From: Candidatus Micrarchaeia archaeon
GTDB taxonomy: Archaea > Micrarchaeota > Micrarchaeia > CAILAH01
Direction: 5' to 3'
DNA: 22,091 bases
NCBI GenBank assembly: GCA_038740245.1
Contig: JAVYLZ010000008.1
Span: 1 to 22,091, forward strand
Both the position numbers and the translations under genes were made by a program. Shown piece by piece: positions 3,664-20,043 of this stretch. The stretch's first letter is position 1. Each line of letters starts with the position of its first letter. The notes beneath the pieces are model-generated. The model saw only the letters and a list, made by a program, of their open reading frames with translations, was not told where the DNA came from and ran no database searches.

Positions 3664-3747
3664 GCCGAGGTGGCAGAATCCGGTAATGCGCCAGACTCGA
3701 GATCTGGTGCCCGCAAGGGCTTAGGAGTTCAAATCTCCTCCTCGGCG
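3664..3747 (+). tRNA. tRNA-Ser (anticodon CGA)
   Basis: Acceptor GCCGAGG/CCTCGGC plus G discriminator; anticodon arm CCAGA-CTCGAGA-TCTGG; long variable arm GCCC-GCAA-GGGC; T arm AGGAG-TTCAAAT-CTCCT; CCA not encoded. Confidence 0.97.
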
Positions 3748-3748
3748 C

Positions 3749-12239: not shown

Positions 12240-14894
12240 TCACCACACAATTAATATTCCAAGCTCTGGGACAAGTGCCCAGTTATTGCCTACACTGCGG
12301 TATTCCGCACCAAGACGCAGCGTAAATACATCCTTCATGTTTACGGCCTTAACACTGCCGAACAGCAGGTAGCCGCTTTCAAACCCTTGCGAACTTGAAA
12401 TGCTGCCCATATAGGTTGCGCCGTCCCTCTCATATGTTCCAATGCCCGGCACAAACAGCTGGCTGTATTCCGAACCAAGTATTGCGCCGCCGCCAAAGTT
12501 CAGGTACTTCCAAGTAAGCGAGGCGCCAACCACTGCGGATGCGTTCCACGCCATATTGGGGCTCGCAGAGGCATACCTGCCGCCTGCACCTACAACAAGG
12601 TTGAGGTATGCCGGCTTGTCATACCACAGCGGAAGCTGCAGCAGCACACTGCCCTCGGTGCACTCAAACACTGAATTTCCGTCCTTCTTCTGCGAGTATA
12701 TGCCCGCAGAGCGCACTATCAGCGGGTACTTGCTGGCTGTATCCCATACATTTAATGAATATGACAGCGGCGCCCTCTCGGTAAACGTGCCGCTTACATT
12801 AAAGTTCATTACATCGCTTGTTACAAGGAACGTGCCGCCAACCATTGCATTCTCGCTTTTCCTGGTGCTCTTTGAAAGGTTAAGCAATGCGGCGATGCGC
12901 CAGTCCCTCCCGTCCTTGTCTTCCAAAAGCAGGCTTGGGCCAACACTCAATAATGCATTATGATTGTAGTACCCTTCAGTGTACTCGTGGCCGTACCCTT
13001 TGTATGCACCGCCCAGTGTAAAGCCTATTTTTGCAGGGTTAATATGAATATATACTGGGGCAGTTGCATCCCAGCCAAACAGCTGTTTACTTCCAATAGA
13101 TGATTGCGAGAGGTATCCTATCCCGCCAACTTCCAGTGCACCCTTAACTGCCTCCTTTTGGGTATCCTCGCGTGCGGGGTCAGGTGCAGCAACCGGTACG
13201 GCTTCAGTCTCAGCGTGTGCAATCAATATATCTGCAATCTCATCACGTTTGGACTCAAGACGGCCAACCGTATCAATAACTTTGTCTCTAAGGGCTTCTG
13301 GGTCGGTGCACCGGCGGCACTCATCTATCTTCTCAAGTATCTTAGCACCATCATTACCTGCAAGCGTAACCTTCTCATTGAACCTTTCAATTATCTTGTT
13401 GCCCATCTGCAAAAAGCCTTCCTTCGTGTTGGGCTCTTCACCGAAAGCGTCTATTACTATCTTTTCGGATTTTCCTTTGCCGCGGCTATACTGTGCAACC
13501 AGCTGGTTGATCTGCTCGTTAACCGCATTAATCTCGTTGTTTTGCGCTGCCTCAAATGAATCAACAAGCTCAAACACTTCTTTTGAAGTGGGGGCGTTTT
13601 CATCTGCAATCTTTTCATTGATTAGTGAGGAATACTCCTCCTTCTTCTGGATTACGTATACATCAAGTTGTGAAAGCTGGTCAAGCATATATGTAATTAC
13701 CATGCGGTCCCCCTCAGAGCTCTTATTATAGTCGTCAAGCTGCTTTTGTATCTGCTGCACCTCTTCAATCATTTGCTTGTGCAGCTTCTCTACACGCTCA
13801 AGCAGCTTGGGACCTTCTACAGAAACAAGGTCTCCGCGAAGTATTTCCTCAAGCGCAAAGTCAAGTTCTGAAATGCCGTTGCGCGTGCTGGCTTCAAGCC
13901 CCTCTATGCTCTTGGCAATCACTGCGAGATTGTCACCGGCCTTTTCCTTCTCTGCAAGGATCTGCTCAACACGCTCCTTGTTCGGAAGCTCTGCCACGCA
14001 TCCCTTGCATTCAGTCTTGTACTCTACTGCTGCGGGCTCAGTGCTCGCTTTTTGTGCATCAGCCTCCAGAGCGGCCTTCAGCTGTTCCTCGGGAACACGC
14101 TTCTCCTCAATTATCTCGGCAATGGTCTTCTCCTCTGGCGCACCGCTTAAGCCCTTGCGCATCTGCGCATACTCCTCATTAGACATTGCATAAACAGTTG
14201 TCTCCTGCACCTTTGGCGGCTTTGGCAGCTTGTGAATAACCATCTTGCCAGGCGGCTCAACAAACCGCTGCTCAGTGGCTATTGTGCCGTCCGCCATCTG
14301 ATAATATATGGGCGTATAATTCCTTTTCTGGTGTTCTGCCGCGGGTTTTGCCTTTTGTGCATCCTTGCCCTCCGTTGCGCTTGGTGCCTTACCCTTCGCA
14401 ACAGGGGCTGATTTCTGCTTCGGCTTGGGGTTCTTGAGGTTATACTGGTAATCGCACTCAAGCTGGGCCAAAATCTCATCAGAGACCTTAGGGAGCAGCT
14501 TAGGCGGCAGCCCATTCTTGCGTATGATTTCTGCGGATTTGGGGGTCACATATACCGCACGAAGGTCCTCGTATGAAAGCTTGCCTTTCTTATACTGCGC
14601 ATATGCGCGCTCAAGCTCATAATCAGTGCCTATTTTCACTTTCTTTTGGACACCTTCAAACTGGACCTCGCTTGTTGAGCACTTTTGCGGCCCCTGCTGT
14701 GCTGGCATCTCCTGCGCGGATGCGCCGGCGACGGTGCATGCCAACGCAAGTCCAAGCATTATCTTGTAAACGCCTGGCGGCAGCCTGAACCTGCGTTGCA
14801 CCTGCTCTTCGGGCGCGCTTAGTTTCAGCTGACTGTTATCACCGGAAACCTGTGCCTGCCGTGAGATTCCTTTAAGCATATATGAATTAACCAT
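12240..14894 (-). CDS. Hypothetical exported protein: extended signal-like N-terminus, coiled-coil middle, C-terminal beta-strand-rich (beta-barrel-like) domain
   Basis: Long ORF. Start placed at ATG 14894 (MVNSY..., ~884 aa) because a TATA-like element lies at 14938-14945. Hydrophobic IMLGLALACTVAGASA-QE begins near residue 45. E/K/Q-rich helical middle. Last ~300 aa consist of Gly/aromatic amphipathic strands ending in W. Confidence 0.75.
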   Translation of the reverse strand: MVNSYMLKGISRQAQVSGDNSQLKLSAPEEQVQRRFRLPPGVYKIMLGLALACTVAGASAQEMPAQQGPQKCSTSEVQFEGVQKKVKIGTDYELERAYAQYKKGKLSYEDLRAVYVTPKSAEIIRKNGLPPKLLPKVSDEILAQLECDYQYNLKNPKPKQKSAPVAKGKAPSATEGKDAQKAKPAAEHQKRNYTPIYYQMADGTIATEQRFVEPPGKMVIHKLPKPPKVQETTVYAMSNEEYAQMRKGLSGAPEEKTIAEIIEEKRVPEEQLKAALEADAQKASTEPAAVEYKTECKGCVAELPNKERVEQILAEKEKAGDNLAVIAKSIEGLEASTRNGISELDFALEEILRGDLVSVEGPKLLERVEKLHKQMIEEVQQIQKQLDDYNKSSEGDRMVITYMLDQLSQLDVYVIQKKEEYSSLINEKIADENAPTSKEVFELVDSFEAAQNNEINAVNEQINQLVAQYSRGKGKSEKIVIDAFGEEPNTKEGFLQMGNKIIERFNEKVTLAGNDGAKILEKIDECRRCTDPEALRDKVIDTVGRLESKRDEIADILIAHAETEAVPVAAPDPAREDTQKEAVKGALEVGGIGYLSQSSIGSKQLFGWDATAPVYIHINPAKIGFTLGGAYKGYGHEYTEGYYNHNALLSVGPSLLLEDKDGRDWRIAALLNLSKSTRKSENAMVGGTFLVTSDVMNFNVSGTFTERAPLSYSLNVWDTASKYPLIVRSAGIYSQKKDGNSVFECTEGSVLLQLPLWYDKPAYLNLVVGAGGRYASASPNMAWNASAVVGASLTWKYLNFGGGAILGSEYSQLFVPGIGTYERDGATYMGSISSSQGFESGYLLFGSVKAVNMKDVFTLRLGAEYRSVGNNWALVPELGILIVW

Positions 14895-14937
14895 AGTATA
14901 CCCCCAACGTTGGTAAGGGATTTTGAGTGTTCCGGGG

Positions 14938-14945
14938 TTTATATA
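14938..14945 (-). promoter_or_regulatory. Putative TATA box for the surface-protein operon
   Basis: TATATAAA on the minus strand ~44 nt upstream of ATG 14894, in the divergent intergenic region. Confidence 0.5.
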
Positions 14946-14988
14946 CATTTCTATTATGACATGTAGGCGGCGGAGCCAAAAAATGAGC

Positions 14989-14996
14989 ATATATAA
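14989..14996 (+). promoter_or_regulatory. TATA box for tRNA-Lys
   Basis: ATATATAA ending ~25 nt upstream of tRNA position 1, with an A-rich BRE-like stretch upstream. Confidence 0.65.
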
Positions 14997-15082
14997 GGAT
15001 ATGTGCCCATAATTGCCTTGCGGGCCCGTAGCTCAGCTTGGCTAGAGCGGCGGACTTTTAATCCGAAGGTCACGGGTTCAAA

Positions 15083-15277
15083 GCAGGGACCCAGCGGTCC
15101 AGCATGCGCTTTGCGCATGTGGCCTGCAAACATTCTGTTTGCACGGCCCCGCACCCCTTGCAACCAAGCAAGTGGGGGCGGAGCCCCCTTGGGCTGCCAA
15201 AAAATACCTCGCACATGTGGGGGTTTGGGCGGTGGCGGACTAAGGGGGCGGAGCCCCCTTGGGCTGCCATGTGAAAA
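15083..15277 (+). other. BHB-type tRNA intron, 195 nt, highly structured
   Basis: Canonical BHB: central helix TTCA(15077-80)/TGAA(15272-75), 3-nt bulges AAG(15081-83) and AAT(15276-78), flanked by the T stem and CA-g-GG/CC-a-TG. Cleavage after the second base of each bulge gives exactly the mature T-loop. Confidence 0.9.
15174..15269 (+). repeat. 26-nt perfect direct repeat inside the intron
   Basis: GGGGGCGGAGCCCCCTTGGGCTGCCA at 15174-15199 and 15244-15269; each copy contains the hairpin GGGGGC-GGA-GCCCCC. Confidence 0.95.
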
Positions 15278-15379
15278 TCCCGTCGGGCCCGTTTTTAATA
15301 AAAATTGCCTTCTTTTAAGGCAAATGTTGCGCTTCGGGCTGTTTAAATACTAGTTGCACAGGAGGAGATGCTAAAGGCA

Positions 15380-15387
15380 TTTATAAA
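15380..15387 (+). promoter_or_regulatory. TATA box for the pilin/VirB4-like operon
   Basis: TTTATAAA preceded by AAAGG, ~31 nt upstream of ATG 15419, which has a GGTGGTG RBS. Confidence 0.7.
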
Positions 15388-15418
15388 TTATACCGCTGAT
15401 TACATAAAAGGTGGTGTA

Positions 15419-15760
15419 ATGAATAGATTCGCGATTGTTGCACTGTTTGTGCTTACGTTCTCTGCAATGACCTATGCAGGAGTTGGCGAAACGCTTAATA
15501 ACCTCTGCTTCCAGGCGAGGGGTCTTATACCGATAGTTGCATTTGTCCTAATCGTGTTCGCAGGTCTTGTGTATGCCGCGGGGCAGGTGCTGGGTGCTGA
15601 GATGCGTTCCAGGACCAACGTGTGGGCGACAACCATGGTCATTGGCGCGATAATCGGCCTGATATTTACGTTCAGCGCACCTGCCATAATCAGCCTTGTG
15701 GCTGGGGCATTTGGGATGGATCTTGAGACCTACGAGTACACGTGTGAAACGCTGCTGTAG
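15419..15760 (+). CDS. VirB2/TrbC-like pilin (CedA1/TedC-like)
   Basis: 113 aa from ATG 15419. Signal peptide ending TYA, an amphipathic helix, then two hydrophobic helices (IPIVAFVLIVFAGLVYAAG; MVIGAIIGLIFTFSAPAII) joined by a short basic loop (EMRSR). First gene of an operon containing a VirB4-like ATPase. Confidence 0.7.
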   Translation: MNRFAIVALFVLTFSAMTYAGVGETLNNLCFQARGLIPIVAFVLIVFAGLVYAAGQVLGAEMRSRTNVWATTMVIGAIIGLIFTFSAPAIISLVAGAFGMDLETYEYTCETLL

Positions 15761-15769
15761 AGGGATGCG

Positions 15770-16531
15770 ATGGAGCTGAACGAGACGCTTGCGTACGGTG
15801 CGCTCGGAGCGGGCGGGGTATTCCTGCTGTTCGCCAGCCAGTTTGCCCCCATTGCCCTGCTTTCAATAATCTGTGCACTGCTCGCATACATGTTTTACAG
15901 GTGGGGCAACATCTACGTGCCATTCCTGGTATTCCAAAAAAGGGAAATACAGGTACCATACGCCTTTGAGATTTCGCCTGCAGAGGATGCTGTATTCAAG
16001 CAGGTTGGGGATGATTATATAGCAACAGTATTCCTCAATTTGGATATCTACGAAACGATGACCAACAAGAACCAAGATGAGATAAACGATTATGCGCATT
16101 ACTTTGAGCGCTCAATATCAAGCGTCAAGGACCCCATAAAAATATCTGCAATACTCTACGAGAGGGACATGGGGCGGTATGCTAAGGCAATTGAGGAGAG
16201 GAAAGCTGCGCTTGAGGATAAGATTGCTGCAGAGAGACAGAAGAAAAAGGCGGACCCGCGCACAATTGAAGTGCTTGAGCGCGAAAAGCTTATGTGGGAG
16301 CGGCGGCTTGAGGGGCTTTACAAGTCGTCTGAGCGGCCTCGTGCGGTTGAATACATAATTGCAACTTCCGGGTTTGGGCCGTCACGCGACGCCGCGCTCA
16401 GCGCTGCAAAAACAAGGGCACGGGAGATTAAGGCAACGTTTGCGGGCGGCATGTCCGTCAATGTTGATGAGCTTACACGGAACAGAATGAGGTCCTGCTT
16501 TGAGTGGGAATTCCTTTCCCCAGAATGGTGA
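15770..16531 (+). CDS. Membrane protein, two N-terminal TMs plus cytoplasmic alpha/beta domain with coiled-coil insert (VirB3/VirB4-N-terminal-like)
   Basis: 253 aa; hydrophobic hairpin at residues ~8-45; clearly paralogous to the next gene; located between the pilin and the ATPase. Confidence 0.6.
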   Translation: MELNETLAYGALGAGGVFLLFASQFAPIALLSIICALLAYMFYRWGNIYVPFLVFQKREIQVPYAFEISPAEDAVFKQVGDDYIATVFLNLDIYETMTNKNQDEINDYAHYFERSISSVKDPIKISAILYERDMGRYAKAIEERKAALEDKIAAERQKKKADPRTIEVLEREKLMWERRLEGLYKSSERPRAVEYIIATSGFGPSRDAALSAAKTRAREIKATFAGGMSVNVDELTRNRMRSCFEWEFLSPEW

Positions 16532-16535
16532 GATT

Positions 16536-17336
16536 GTGCCAAGGATACCCAAGCTGTATATGATTGCCGGCGTGGTCTTTGTAACAGCAATTGCGCTGTT
16601 TATACTGTTCCAGGCAGGAATAGTGATATTTGCAATAGGCCTGCTTCTTGCGCTGCTGGTTGGTGCATTCATTTACTTCGGGCATTTCATCACGCCGCTC
16701 ATAACACGCATAGCTGGCATAACCTACCGAAAAGGTGAGTATATTTTCCCGCCGGGGCAGGATGTGATAGTGAAAAAGAGCGGGGATAAGTATATGGCCG
16801 CCAAATTCATGCTGGTAAACATACCAGAGCGCGAGGAGGTTTCAGGAAAGCGCGAGGAGCGGTCCGAAGTGTACCTGAAGGACTTTGAGGCCGCAGTGAG
16901 CGCGATACACGTGCCTGTGAAATTCAATATGCTGCTCGCGACCAAGGACATAAGCGCCTACAGGGAAAGCATACAGTCCAAGGTATACGAGTACGGACTC
17001 AGGATAAAGCGTGAGATGGAAAAGGCCGAGCCCGACGTGATAAAGCTTGACAAGTGGCAGAAGGAGAAGGAGTTTAACGAGAACCTTCTCAAGCGGCTTG
17101 CAAGCGGCGTGAAGCCGATGGCCTGCGTGATGTATGTTATGACATTGGCCAAGGGCATAACGCAAAAGGAAGCCATTGACAAGGTAAAGGCCAATGCCAA
17201 GGAGATCAAGGCGGTCATCTCAAACAACCTCAACGCCGAGGTAACCGACCTTATTGGCGAGGATGCAGAGCTCTGCCTTGAGTGGGAGCGTGCGCTGCCC
17301 ACAAGCTATGAAGAGCTTGTTGCAGCTACGGATTAG
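16536..17336 (+). CDS. Membrane protein, paralog of the upstream gene (VirB3/VirB4-N-terminal-like)
   Basis: GTG 16536 follows a GGTGA RBS and is preferred over TTG 16500. Two TMs; aligns with the upstream protein through to the shared C.EWE motif. Confidence 0.6.
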   Translation: MPRIPKLYMIAGVVFVTAIALFILFQAGIVIFAIGLLLALLVGAFIYFGHFITPLITRIAGITYRKGEYIFPPGQDVIVKKSGDKYMAAKFMLVNIPEREEVSGKREERSEVYLKDFEAAVSAIHVPVKFNMLLATKDISAYRESIQSKVYEYGLRIKREMEKAEPDVIKLDKWQKEKEFNENLLKRLASGVKPMACVMYVMTLAKGITQKEAIDKVKANAKEIKAVISNNLNAEVTDLIGEDAELCLEWERALPTSYEELVAATD

Positions 17337-17345
17337 GTGTATGCG

Positions 17346-18914
17346 ATGGGAGTGATAACCGTAAAGAACAGGAAGCTATACAGCTCTGATGTGGCGTCGC
17401 GCGGCATTGTCAGCAGGCCGCCAGAGCCGCCTGCCGAGCTCATAACCGGCGATCCAACAAACTCCATCTATATCGGCAGGACTGCGGTGTTCAACGAGCC
17501 GTTCCACTGGAGCTATGAGAATGTTACAAACCCCCACATCGCAGTGGTTGGTATCTCAGGTGCAGGCAAGTCATACTTCATCAAGACATTTCTCACACGC
17601 GCATCTTTCGTGTGGGGCACAAACGCGCTCATAATTGACTGGGCCGGCGAATATAAGGAATGGGTAAAGCAGGCCGGCGGCAAGGTGCTCGCGCTCGGGA
17701 AGGGGTCATACCTGAACCTGCTTGACCTTGCGGGCATGCGGCCGCTTGACCGCATAAAGCAGATAAGCAGGAGCCTTGAGATACTTACGGACATCGGCTC
17801 ATACCCTGAGCAGAAGCGGCTTACCGAGGAAGCGATCGAGCGCGCATATGTTGACAAGGGGTTCAAGCTTTCCGTAAAGGACCAGAAGGATGCGCTTGGC
17901 AACCCGCTTACTCCCCCCACACTCAAGGACGTTGTGCGGGTGCTTGAGGACAAGCTTGCTTCCGGCACCTATGAGTTCCCAGTAGAGCTTGAAAACGCAA
18001 TATACAGGCTCAAGAAATTCACGCGCGAGGGTGAGGATTTCTTTGCCGAGCAGAGCACTATAAAGCTTAACGAGCTCATTTCATCCGGCCTTGTGGGGCT
18101 TGACTTATCGGGCCTGCCTGATGAGACGATGCGTGCGCTTGCTGCGCTGTCAATACTCCAGTTCATCAAGGAAAAAATGCGCGCCTCGGGCTGGGAAAAA
18201 CAGAAGGGCATCAAGCTCATCATAGTGCTTGATGAGGCATGGAAGATTGCAAAGGACGATAACGGCGATCCGGTTATGATTGTAAGGGAAGGACGCAAGT
18301 ACAACTTTGCGCTGCTTGTCGCATCGCAAAACCCCACGGACATAAGCGAGGCGATATTCTCAAATGTCGGCACGACGTTTATACTCAGGGTCAAGTTTGA
18401 GAAGTTCCTTGACTATTTGCAGAACACGCTGAACTTCAGCGATTACATGCGGCAACAGATTGCGCGCCTTGGGGTTGGGCAGGCCGCAGTGAACATGGCG
18501 CTCCAGACAAGCACACCGTACCCCGAGACGTTCCTGCTCTCCAAAATAGAAGGTGAGGAGCCGGTGGTTGAATACTTCCTGGACGTGCAGCCAAAATTGA
18601 TTGGTGGAGAGGATATTGTGGGCAAAACATTCTCGTTTGAAAGGAATGAGCTTCGCAAGAAGCTCCGGCTGTTTGGGCTGAATGACGAAAAGGTGGAGGA
18701 GATAACCTCAACATTTGACAAGCAGAACAGGCATATGGACATCGTTGACTTCGTGATTATGCTTGAACGTTACGGCATAGACCGCAACGACATTACGGGT
18801 TACCTGAAGGACTTGGGTGTGGAGGACAGCGTGATAATCAACATACTTTCAGAAGCGGATTATAAGAAACAGGGCATCCGTGGCGAGAGCACGGAGGTTG
18901 AGCTGAATGATTAA
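17346..18914 (+). CDS. VirB4/HerA-family P-loop ATPase (DUF87-like) with an extra C-terminal helical domain
   Basis: NPHIAVVGISGAGKS Walker A, IIDWAGEY, LNLLDL, PTL.D, IIVLDEAW Walker B, REGRKYN arginine finger and ASQ motif. ATG 17346 follows an AGGTG RBS. Confidence 0.9.
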   Translation: MGVITVKNRKLYSSDVASRGIVSRPPEPPAELITGDPTNSIYIGRTAVFNEPFHWSYENVTNPHIAVVGISGAGKSYFIKTFLTRASFVWGTNALIIDWAGEYKEWVKQAGGKVLALGKGSYLNLLDLAGMRPLDRIKQISRSLEILTDIGSYPEQKRLTEEAIERAYVDKGFKLSVKDQKDALGNPLTPPTLKDVVRVLEDKLASGTYEFPVELENAIYRLKKFTREGEDFFAEQSTIKLNELISSGLVGLDLSGLPDETMRALAALSILQFIKEKMRASGWEKQKGIKLIIVLDEAWKIAKDDNGDPVMIVREGRKYNFALLVASQNPTDISEAIFSNVGTTFILRVKFEKFLDYLQNTLNFSDYMRQQIARLGVGQAAVNMALQTSTPYPETFLLSKIEGEEPVVEYFLDVQPKLIGGEDIVGKTFSFERNELRKKLRLFGLNDEKVEEITSTFDKQNRHMDIVDFVIMLERYGIDRNDITGYLKDLGVEDSVIINILSEADYKKQGIRGESTEVELND

Positions 18915-19281
18915 GGAGAGGGGCAAGCACCTGAGAGGCGCATCAAAAAACAGTGTGTGCATACTTTGCGAGAAGCTGGGAGCTCGCGGCAGGGCCGTTA
19001 AAGAGGACTATTTAATAGCGGCGATACGCGCAGTGAAGCGGCTCTTCAAGATGGAAGCCGGCAATAAGCTGGTCGTGTGCGATGAGTGCTATCCTGCCTA
19101 CAGTAAGAAGCGCGGGGAGTTTGAGAAAGGCCTGCTCATCTACGGTATAATCGGCATGGCAATCATGCTGCTGCTTCTTATTATGAGCTTCTCGCTTGGG
19201 AGCCTGATTTCCGGATTGCTTATGCTGTTGTTCCTGCTCATACTTGCACACATCAAGTACACGCCTAAAGTAGAGGGTTGA
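18907..19281 (+). CDS. Small membrane protein with CxxC...CxxC putative zinc site and C-terminal TM hairpin
   Basis: CILC and CDEC motifs, two hydrophobic segments, GGAGGT RBS; overlaps the ATPase stop. Confidence 0.72.
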   Translation: MIKERGKHLRGASKNSVCILCEKLGARGRAVKEDYLIAAIRAVKRLFKMEAGNKLVVCDECYPAYSKKRGEFEKGLLIYGIIGMAIMLLLLIMSFSLGSLISGLLMLLFLLILAHIKYTPKVEG

Positions 19282-19284
19282 AAA

Positions 19285-20043
19285 ATGGCTGAAACTGAGA
19301 GAACTGAAGCGCAGCCGGCACGGCTTGACCTGGTGCCAGAGCCGATGGGCGCATCATTCAAGTTTGGTGCCAGGCGCAAGGTTGATGCTGCACAGCTGGC
19401 CAAAATGCTCTCAAGCATACCCGATATTGAGGTTGTTGAGCAAAAGGGCACTGTCTGCATGATAAAGGTTGACAGCAGGGATATTGACGGTATGCCTTAC
19501 CTGTTCACGATTGTGTATTTCAATGAGAATAACATTGAGGTTCTCTACACCATTACCCCGGAAATAAGCCTTAGGAAGCGGCGGCTTGAGCTGCTCAGGT
19601 TTCTTGTTAATACGGTGACAATGCTTTCAGATGCCTATGACATTGACCTGCCAAGCTTTATGCAGCTGCTTGATGTTTTCCTCGCGGACATTAAAGAATT
19701 TGCAACACTTGACTATGAGAAGCTGTTCACGCGGTATGATGCAGCCCTTGCGCGGCTTGAGGAGGCAAAGAAAAAGATAGAGCGGCTTACTGAGAGCAAC
19801 GAGCGGCTGAGCAAGGATGTGCTTGAGATTACAAACCAGCGCAACGAGCTTAGGCTCAAGCTTGATGAGCTTGAGAAGTATTCTGACGATGCGCTCATGA
19901 TAAAGGTGCAGGAGTGGATAAAGGAGCACAACAATGAGATTAACATAGGTGATTTCTGCAAGCTTTACAAAGTCAATGAAAGCCGTGTTGAGCAGATACT
20001 CAACAAGATGGTGCGCGAAGGGTATCTTGAAGTAAGGCGCTGA
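19285..20043 (+). CDS. Hypothetical protein: N-terminal alpha/beta domain, coiled coil, C-terminal winged helix
   Basis: 252 aa; heptad pattern YDAALARLEEAKKKIERLTESNERLSKDVLEITNQRNELRLKLDELEK; C-terminal INIGDFCKLYKVNESRVEQILNKMVREGYL. Confidence 0.75.
   Translation: MAETERTEAQPARLDLVPEPMGASFKFGARRKVDAAQLAKMLSSIPDIEVVEQKGTVCMIKVDSRDIDGMPYLFTIVYFNENNIEVLYTITPEISLRKRRLELLRFLVNTVTMLSDAYDIDLPSFMQLLDVFLADIKEFATLDYEKLFTRYDAALARLEEAKKKIERLTESNERLSKDVLEITNQRNELRLKLDELEKYSDDALMIKVQEWIKEHNNEINIGDFCKLYKVNESRVEQILNKMVREGYLEVRR

Follow-up and report, generated by a model that had tools for sequence, protein, structure and literature searches.

Published archaeal tRNA introns are short: a 2014 review gives lengths of 11-129 nt (PMC4090602), and a preprint of October 2026 reports medians of 22-23 nt for Asgard archaea (10.64898/2026.10.13.758758). 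Insertion at position 59/60, heavy interruption of Micrarchaeota tRNA genes, intron families that cross isotypes and the circular form of excised introns are already known (PMC3239211, PMC4090602, PMC12558985). The epsilon2 EndA of ARMAN-2 has been reported to cleave a 59/60 intron in vitro (PMC3239211). How do such introns arise and move? The 2014 review states that the origin of archaeal tRNA introns is open and calls the mechanism of their transposition unknown (PMC4090602), the Asgard preprint reports no general route (10.64898/2026.10.13.758758), and PMC11291895 deals with Asgard intron load only. Among mobile elements, IS200 insertion is reported to produce no target duplication (PMC10055086), and a 52-bp terminal-only element is described as possibly mobile (PMC3119063, PMC10055086).

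The window analysed here, a stretch of 22,091 nucleotides, is contig C8 of a 688-kb Candidatus Micrarchaeia genome (G000) that is 81% complete. It carries a tRNA-Lys(UUU) gene of two exons (15022-15082 and 15278-15291) with an insert of 195 nt at 59/60 between them. In our best reading, this insert is probably an intron that is spliced out and that a non-autonomous DNA element has colonised; an IS200-type TnpA may move the element.

The tRNA-Lys(UUU) gene and its splice borders

The features of the locus, all on the + strand, are as follows (basis in brackets).

14990..14996, +: candidate TATA-like box, ~26-32 nt upstream of tRNA-Lys(UUU) (sequence reading only)
15022..15082, +: 5' exon of tRNA-Lys(UUU), positions 1-59 (sequence reading, Rfam)
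15022-15028, +: acceptor part of the 5' exon (sequence reading)
15057..15059, +: anticodon UUU, TTT in DNA (sequence reading)
15072-15076, +: T-stem part of the 5' exon (sequence reading)
15077..15083, +: BHB exon strand, central helix TTCA plus 5' bulge, cut after 15082 (sequence reading)
15083..15277, +: intron, 195 nt at 59/60, GC 0.636 (sequence comparison)
15083..15172, +: 5' block of four hairpins (common to T-loop introns on contigs C3, C5, C6 and C34)
15174..15199, +: truncated copy, the 3' half, of the mobile hairpin (repeat comparison)
15219..15269, +: full mobile hairpin of ~50 nt, G-rich leader and 16-pair stem 15233-15269 (pattern and alignment)
15272..15278, +: BHB intron strand, helix TGAA plus 3' bulge, cut after 15277 (sequence reading)
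15278..15291, +: 3' exon of tRNA-Lys(UUU), positions 60-73 (sequence reading)

An earlier note on this DNA had described a tRNA with two complete halves whose T-loop is split by the 195-nt insert, and reading of the sequence bears this out. The anticodon stem has one G.A mismatch, common to the family orthologues; CCA is not encoded in the 3' exon, and a T tract lies downstream. TTCA (15077-80) pairs with TGAA (15272-75), and this 4-bp helix is flanked by two 3-nt bulges, AAG (15081-83) and AAT (15276-78), as in archaeal BHB tRNA introns; removal of the intron restores the cloverleaf. The intron-side helix runs for just 2 bp before a mismatch, so that the description of a strict BHB at 59/60 is right for the helix, the bulges and the cut position and too strong for the intron side. 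The three hairpins named in that note and the exact 26-nt repeat (15174-99, 15244-69) lie where it placed them, and its expectation that tRNA finders may overlook the gene was correct: ARAGORN does not call it, and Rfam matches only its 5' half. ARAGORN calls at long-intron settings were mostly spurious and were set aside. Standard finders recovered only 3 intact tRNA genes of the ~30 or more in G000, which implies that Micrarchaeota tRNA sets are under-annotated.

The note had asked whether this is the sole tRNA-Lys(UUU); in the assembly, at 81% completeness, no second copy was found. The 5' exon region is 100% identical over 68 nt to a genome of the same genus (G001), whose orthologue has identical exons and a different intron of 56 nt, also at 59/60. 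Elsewhere in the family, the orthologue in G007 has a 48-nt intron at 59/60, those in G002, G006 and G008 have introns of 39, 36 and 34 nt at a different T-loop position, and those in G060, G031 and G036 are intronless. Exons that stay constant while introns change among orthologues argue for a spliced, selected tRNA. Judged by this comparison, the G000 gene would be a working tRNA-Lys(UUU) with a real 59/60 intron that is probably spliced.

RtcB is present in G000. A splicing endonuclease gave no match in the G000 assembly and matches in 8/8 other family genomes; contig C26 of G000 stops where synteny with G001 would place the gene, and the enzyme of G001 aligns along its length with the ARMAN-2 epsilon2 structure (E 4.5e-125). 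The host's epsilon2-type endonuclease would thus cut the BHB and RtcB join the exons, and the excised 195-nt RNA may circularise, presumably with no job of its own.

Several observations concern the neighbourhood. Upstream, on the - strand at 12240-14990, lies a 916-aa ORF with no Pfam match, whose true start may be downstream of 14990. By features, its C-terminal ~320 residues look like a bacterial outer-membrane beta-barrel (0.92), which is odd for an archaeon, and the predicted structure of this C-terminal part shows beta-barrel likeness (TM ~0.6) in a low-confidence model. Directly after the tRNA, the cluster at 15368-20043 (+) has a weak T4SS-pilin match (E 0.00086, below the cut-off), two membrane proteins without Pfam match and a VirB4/HerA-like ATPase; in G007 a pilin-like gene is also found downstream of the Lys gene.

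Intron copies and a mobile hairpin

The earlier note had called the intron unusually long. This is true against the published 11-129 nt and does not hold within G000, where other introns at 59/60 measure 198 and 193 nt and anticodon-loop introns reach ~287, ~269 and ~218 nt (C32:384-816, C27:8960-9299 and C15:4693-5048); 195 nt is therefore unusual for archaea and typical of this genome. Among the 30 G000 tRNA genes recovered by script (34 rows minus two false positives and two duplicate ends; at least 4 genes seen by comparison, on C1, C4 Ser, C5 Gly and C27, were missed), 27 are interrupted, 18 of them by a T-loop intron, and 3 are intronless. One of these three is a tRNA-Ser(CGA) gene in the window (3664-3748, +).

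The intron is not the single case for which it had been taken. It is 95% identical to the T-loop intron of tRNA-Gly(CCC) on C5 and 93% identical to that of tRNA-Gly(UCC) on C34; the set thus shows the identity (>=80%) across at least two isotypes that marks a transposing intron family of the Thermoproteales type. As judged by identity, copying between tRNA genes was recent enough to leave copies that are 93-95% identical in the Lys and two Gly genes. The opening 86-90 nt of the intron are found again in tRNA genes on C3 and C6, and the first six bases are common to 10 T-loop introns of G000. One or two matches to these six bases occur in 20 of 300 other genomes; of those inspected, 4 family loci are T-loop introns and 12 others are chance matches. 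The first hairpin shows a compensatory A-U / C-G change among copies (15089, 15098), with bases that are copy-specific and also seen in the intron of a family member (L366). The intron folds better than 200/200 shuffles (z -5.4; reverse strand, z -3.1). Hairpin modules of the tRNA introns also lie outside the listed tRNA loci (C3:32270-32500, C29:1870-1940, C6:4945-5072, C11:11489-11554 and C34:2386-2448).

The 3' half of the intron contains 1.5 copies of a mobile hairpin; in the full copy the fixed end, 15269, stands 8 nt upstream of the 3' splice site. When 185,579 species genomes were scanned for the pattern, 31 loci matched: 28 carry the label Micrarchaeota or Micrarchaeia, 2 are 'Ca. ainarchaeum sp.' and 1 is an uncultured archaeon. 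Within the class the hairpin occurs in 31/401 genomes from 10 families, patchily even within the genus of G000; the reversed pattern gave 0 matches in the same 401 genomes. Metagenomes added 112 stretches, and viral contigs gave 0 matches. In all, 180 distinct copies were collected; those that come from kindred genomes do not count as independent, and some metagenome contigs may duplicate counted genomes. The terminal triplets are complementary in 175/179 two-armed copies, in 10 variants. In 41 aligned copies 98.3% of cells are paired, with 40 double-sided changes, which exceeds 500/500 shuffles and all slid controls, figures inflated by sequence relatedness; G.U-type pairs favour one strand. 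No autonomous element with an ORF between the arms was found among 179 copies, in which the longest loop is 118 nt, and a search with the right arm matched 26 records of Micrarchaeota, plus 2 of bacteria in which the left arm is missing. The hairpin lacks the terminal inverted repeats and fixed short target duplication of a MITE: its conserved leader reaches past the left arm, and duplications are absent or variable. At L191, L192, L253, L277, L289 and L300 copies are nested, a hairpin lying within the loop of a related one, in T-loop introns of up to 255 nt.

Where does the hairpin land? T-loop introns of many isotypes (28 acceptor stems in script calls) account for about 75 copies: ~67 run antisense to their tRNA and 8 in sense, and of these 8 G000 has four. 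G000 has both orientations, sense on C8, C5, C34 and C4 and antisense on C16 and C32. In script-called antisense T-loop copies, the fixed end is at most 1 nt from the 5' splice site in 59/60, and these introns have a median length of 78 nt. Excluded rows were L147 (a spurious 396-nt call), L026 and L146 (tRNA-end duplications scored as introns) and L238 (wrong 3' end, although the intron is real by eye).

Another ~100 copies lie outside T-loop introns. Among 93 copies without a nearby tRNA signature, a TTYGAA-like hexamer follows 18 with at most 1 mismatch (0.9 expected; 3 of the 18 are tRNA-linked by eye and 5 come from one genome) and 49 with at most 2 mismatches (6.2 expected), against a background that covers more than AT-rich spacers, which raise the true background. 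The BHB intron strand in the window (15272..15278) resembles this hexamer, and the end of the hairpin adjoins a short AT-rich target motif on its 3' side, as described for Haloquadratum PATEs. Of the non-T-loop copies, 21/85 are flanked by duplications of 14-60 nt whose start coincides with the fixed end (null 0), and exact duplications beginning at the junction are seen in 17/92. At L220, L251, L262, L292 and L209 the hairpin separates two versions of the end of a protein gene, and these differ, by eye, mostly at third codon positions; it looks as if the upstream copy of the gene end derived from another strain.

By comparison of its copies, the hairpin is thus shown to have one fixed end, to land preferentially beside a TTYGAA-like hexamer, to occur in both orientations and to have spread. 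The T-loop would present the target hexamer on the antisense strand and the 3' end of a 59/60 intron a mimic of it, which would explain both hairpin orientations; that the hexamer falls on opposite strands in the T-loop and in the intron 3' BHB strand would follow from the nearly palindromic helix.

We propose that the intron is a neutral shelter that was enlarged at the DNA level in two ways. A family-specific T-loop intron was copied between tRNA genes that share T-arm flanks, by a route that we infer, and the intron also took up the ~50-nt hairpin that moves among Micrarchaeota genomes. Insertion within the intron would keep the BHB intact, be neutral and persist. In most cases the excised intron would not contain the conserved strand, and copies often lie outside tRNAs; this points to a DNA-level element and not to RNA cargo. 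The view that the intron carries cargo thus finds support in its parasitic branch, an element made harmless by splicing, and none in its branch of a functional circular RNA. A contig of run X3, from another sample, has an extra 70-nt repeat unit relative to window positions 15174-15282, which suggests that the length of this or a related intron may vary by slippage.

Candidate movers and rival readings

What moves the hairpin? At 4/173 loci (L157, L242, L244 and L299) an IS200-like tnpA begins 150-205 nt away from the hairpin, always in one geometry, so that the hairpin stands at the left end of the transposase gene, and two further loci carry a tnpA remnant. With about one tnpA per 1.7 Mb in the class, by our estimate, well under one such pairing would be expected by chance. 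The link emerged only on reading the flanks of non-tRNA copies. In G193 (L101, L123-L130), nine short non-coding elements of variable length each begin with the hairpin at different sites; they measure 111-310 nt where both ends are visible, an AT-rich motif precedes them and two have a tnpA remnant. PATEs have two defined ends and no target duplication, a form that the hairpin copies overall do not show; the G193 elements fit it by eye, and the copy in the window is without a second end.

Further results qualify the link. A search of G000 and 8 family genomes found no Y1 transposase, and at the genome level one is present in 6/18 hairpin-bearing genomes vs 54/183 others, with no enrichment. 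Six loci of close IS200 homologues (L379, L410-L414) have the same inner end hairpins and no outer mobile hairpin, which is also missing from all other scanned Y1 loci; a first scan of 30 Y1 loci found none. The better-folding hairpin strand is opposite to the reading strand of the transposase, and the duplications that flank 21/85 non-T-loop copies are not a product of IS200 insertion (PMC10055086). Present at four tnpA left ends and missing from homologues, the hairpin could be an optional outer part of some IS200 left ends, travelling with them, or an independent repeat that landed there. The most likely mover, at somewhat less than even odds, is an IS200-type Y1 TnpA that acts in trans or carries the hairpin on its left end. 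A second hairpin module, found in G000 anticodon introns or just upstream of tRNA genes (C32:522 (-), C27:9050-9270, C15, C16:5570-5626 and C4:17230-17306), resembles the right-end hairpin of several IS200 copies (L244, L410 and L411); a strict pattern for it matches one G000 site and three distinct IS loci.

A bolder extension, which we consider rather doubtful, is that a class of Micrarchaeota T-loop introns are peel-and-paste mini-transposons inserted by IS200-type TnpA. The enzyme would insert an element of ~70-80 nt directly after the T-loop TTCRAA, and the far end (TGAAAA-like) would pair with the target, so that the insertion would be born with a BHB and spliced exactly at its borders. 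The intron in the window would be a later stage, with elements piling up inside an older intron. If true, this would name the enzyme, the substrate and the target rule for archaeal tRNA intron gain.

Alternatively, the hairpin may be a small repeat in its own right that some other enzyme than TnpA moves, whether by target-primed reverse transcription or by a one-ended reaction of rolling-circle or integrase type, and that only rides along at IS200 ends. The fixed 3' end, the variable 5' side and the duplications starting exactly at the junction would suit such a route, as would the strand bias of the G.U-type pairs and the IS200 homologues that work without the hairpin; small repeats of Haloquadratum are also reported to target IS605-type elements (PMC3119063). 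Candidate enzymes, however, show no association: reverse transcriptase occurs in 6/31 hairpin-bearing vs 8/38 other genomes, IS91 transposase in 2/31 vs 0/38 and tyrosine integrase in 16/31 vs 20/38. The 45 largest clusters of neighbouring ORFs, inspected by eye, hold no recurrent mobile-type family, the viral contigs are without matches, and Y1 TnpA is the only enzyme that repeatedly adjoins the hairpin. We regard this alternative as somewhat unlikely.

A role of the excised intron as a functional, stable circular RNA (a guide, regulator or template) under RNA-level selection is very unlikely. Such a role would agree with the strong fold, the one compensatory change among paralogous copies, the sense orientation of all three long G000 copies, the circularity reported for excised archaeal tRNA introns (PMC12558985) and a stop-free circle frame in 2/3 copies. 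Most host tRNAs, however, carry the conserved hairpin in antisense, and it is frequent outside tRNAs; the intron is absent from the same-genus orthologue, and orthologous Lys genes have unrelated introns or none. In the third copy the circle frame is interrupted, and at 64% GC a stretch of 65 codons is often free of stops (by our estimate, a chance of ~0.4 for any of three frames). Unique cargo, a box C/D guide RNA (no C or D boxes, no Rfam family matched) and a coding circle (frame not conserved, broken in the third copy) were rejected, and a homing-endonuclease or group I/II intron does not fit either (no Rfam match, 195 nt, no conserved frame).

Finally, a dead gene copy disrupted by insertion, or an assembly chimera of three similar loci, is barely credible: another Lys(UUU) could be missing from the incomplete genome, the interior is a 93-95% repeat and no contig from four public DNA runs crosses the whole intron or covers 31 nt on each side of a splice site, but the BHB is intact, the exons match those of G001, the compensatory bases at 15089/15098 are copy-specific and recur in L366, other-strain contigs of these runs tile the intron and extend into the exons by 12 and 25 nt, and interruption is the rule among the recovered G000 tRNA genes (27/30).

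Comparison with known systems

With a colonised intron as the preferred reading, the significance lies in the hairpin and its testable link to intron gain and not in this single gene: a fixed end at the splice site, a target preference, non-tRNA copies and a candidate transposase make the question of intron gain testable in vitro. Our literature search found no description of the mobile hairpin in print, and supplementary intron tables (ARMAN-2, Asgard) could hold long examples.

The locus resembles those of ARMAN-2 (Ca. Micrarchaeum acidiphilum) in phylum, the 59/60 position, the type of enzyme in the family and the many interrupted tRNA genes; those tested in ARMAN-2 measure 13 and 25 nt, in contrast to 195 nt of repeated modules here (PMC3239211). 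A long archaeal intron with internal structure is also known from tRNA-Trp, where a box C/D guide RNA is nested within it; here there is no C or D box, and orthologues do not conserve the intron (PMC4090602). The Caldiarchaeum model (Sugahara et al. 2012) likewise links the gain of an intron with a mobile element at the tRNA gene, although that element is 1.8 kb long, codes for a recombinase and lies beside the gene, whereas here an element of 50 nt is the content of the intron (PMC3293823).

Near-identical introns across isotypes of one genome recall intron transposition in Thermoproteales (Fujishima et al. 2010; PMC4090602, PMC3239211, 10.64898/2026.10.13.758758). The intron described here differs from those in its defined sub-element: one end of it is fixed, it prefers a certain target, it stands in either orientation and also outside tRNA genes, and it is linked to a transposase. 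The hairpin itself is closest to Haloquadratum PATEs and other non-autonomous IS200/IS605 derivatives, being short and non-coding, with a hairpin and an AT-rich motif, and found at IS200 ends (PMC3119063, PMC10055086). It differs from PATEs in that most copies are one-ended, a quarter of the non-tRNA copies have long flanking duplications, and many copies are tRNA introns.
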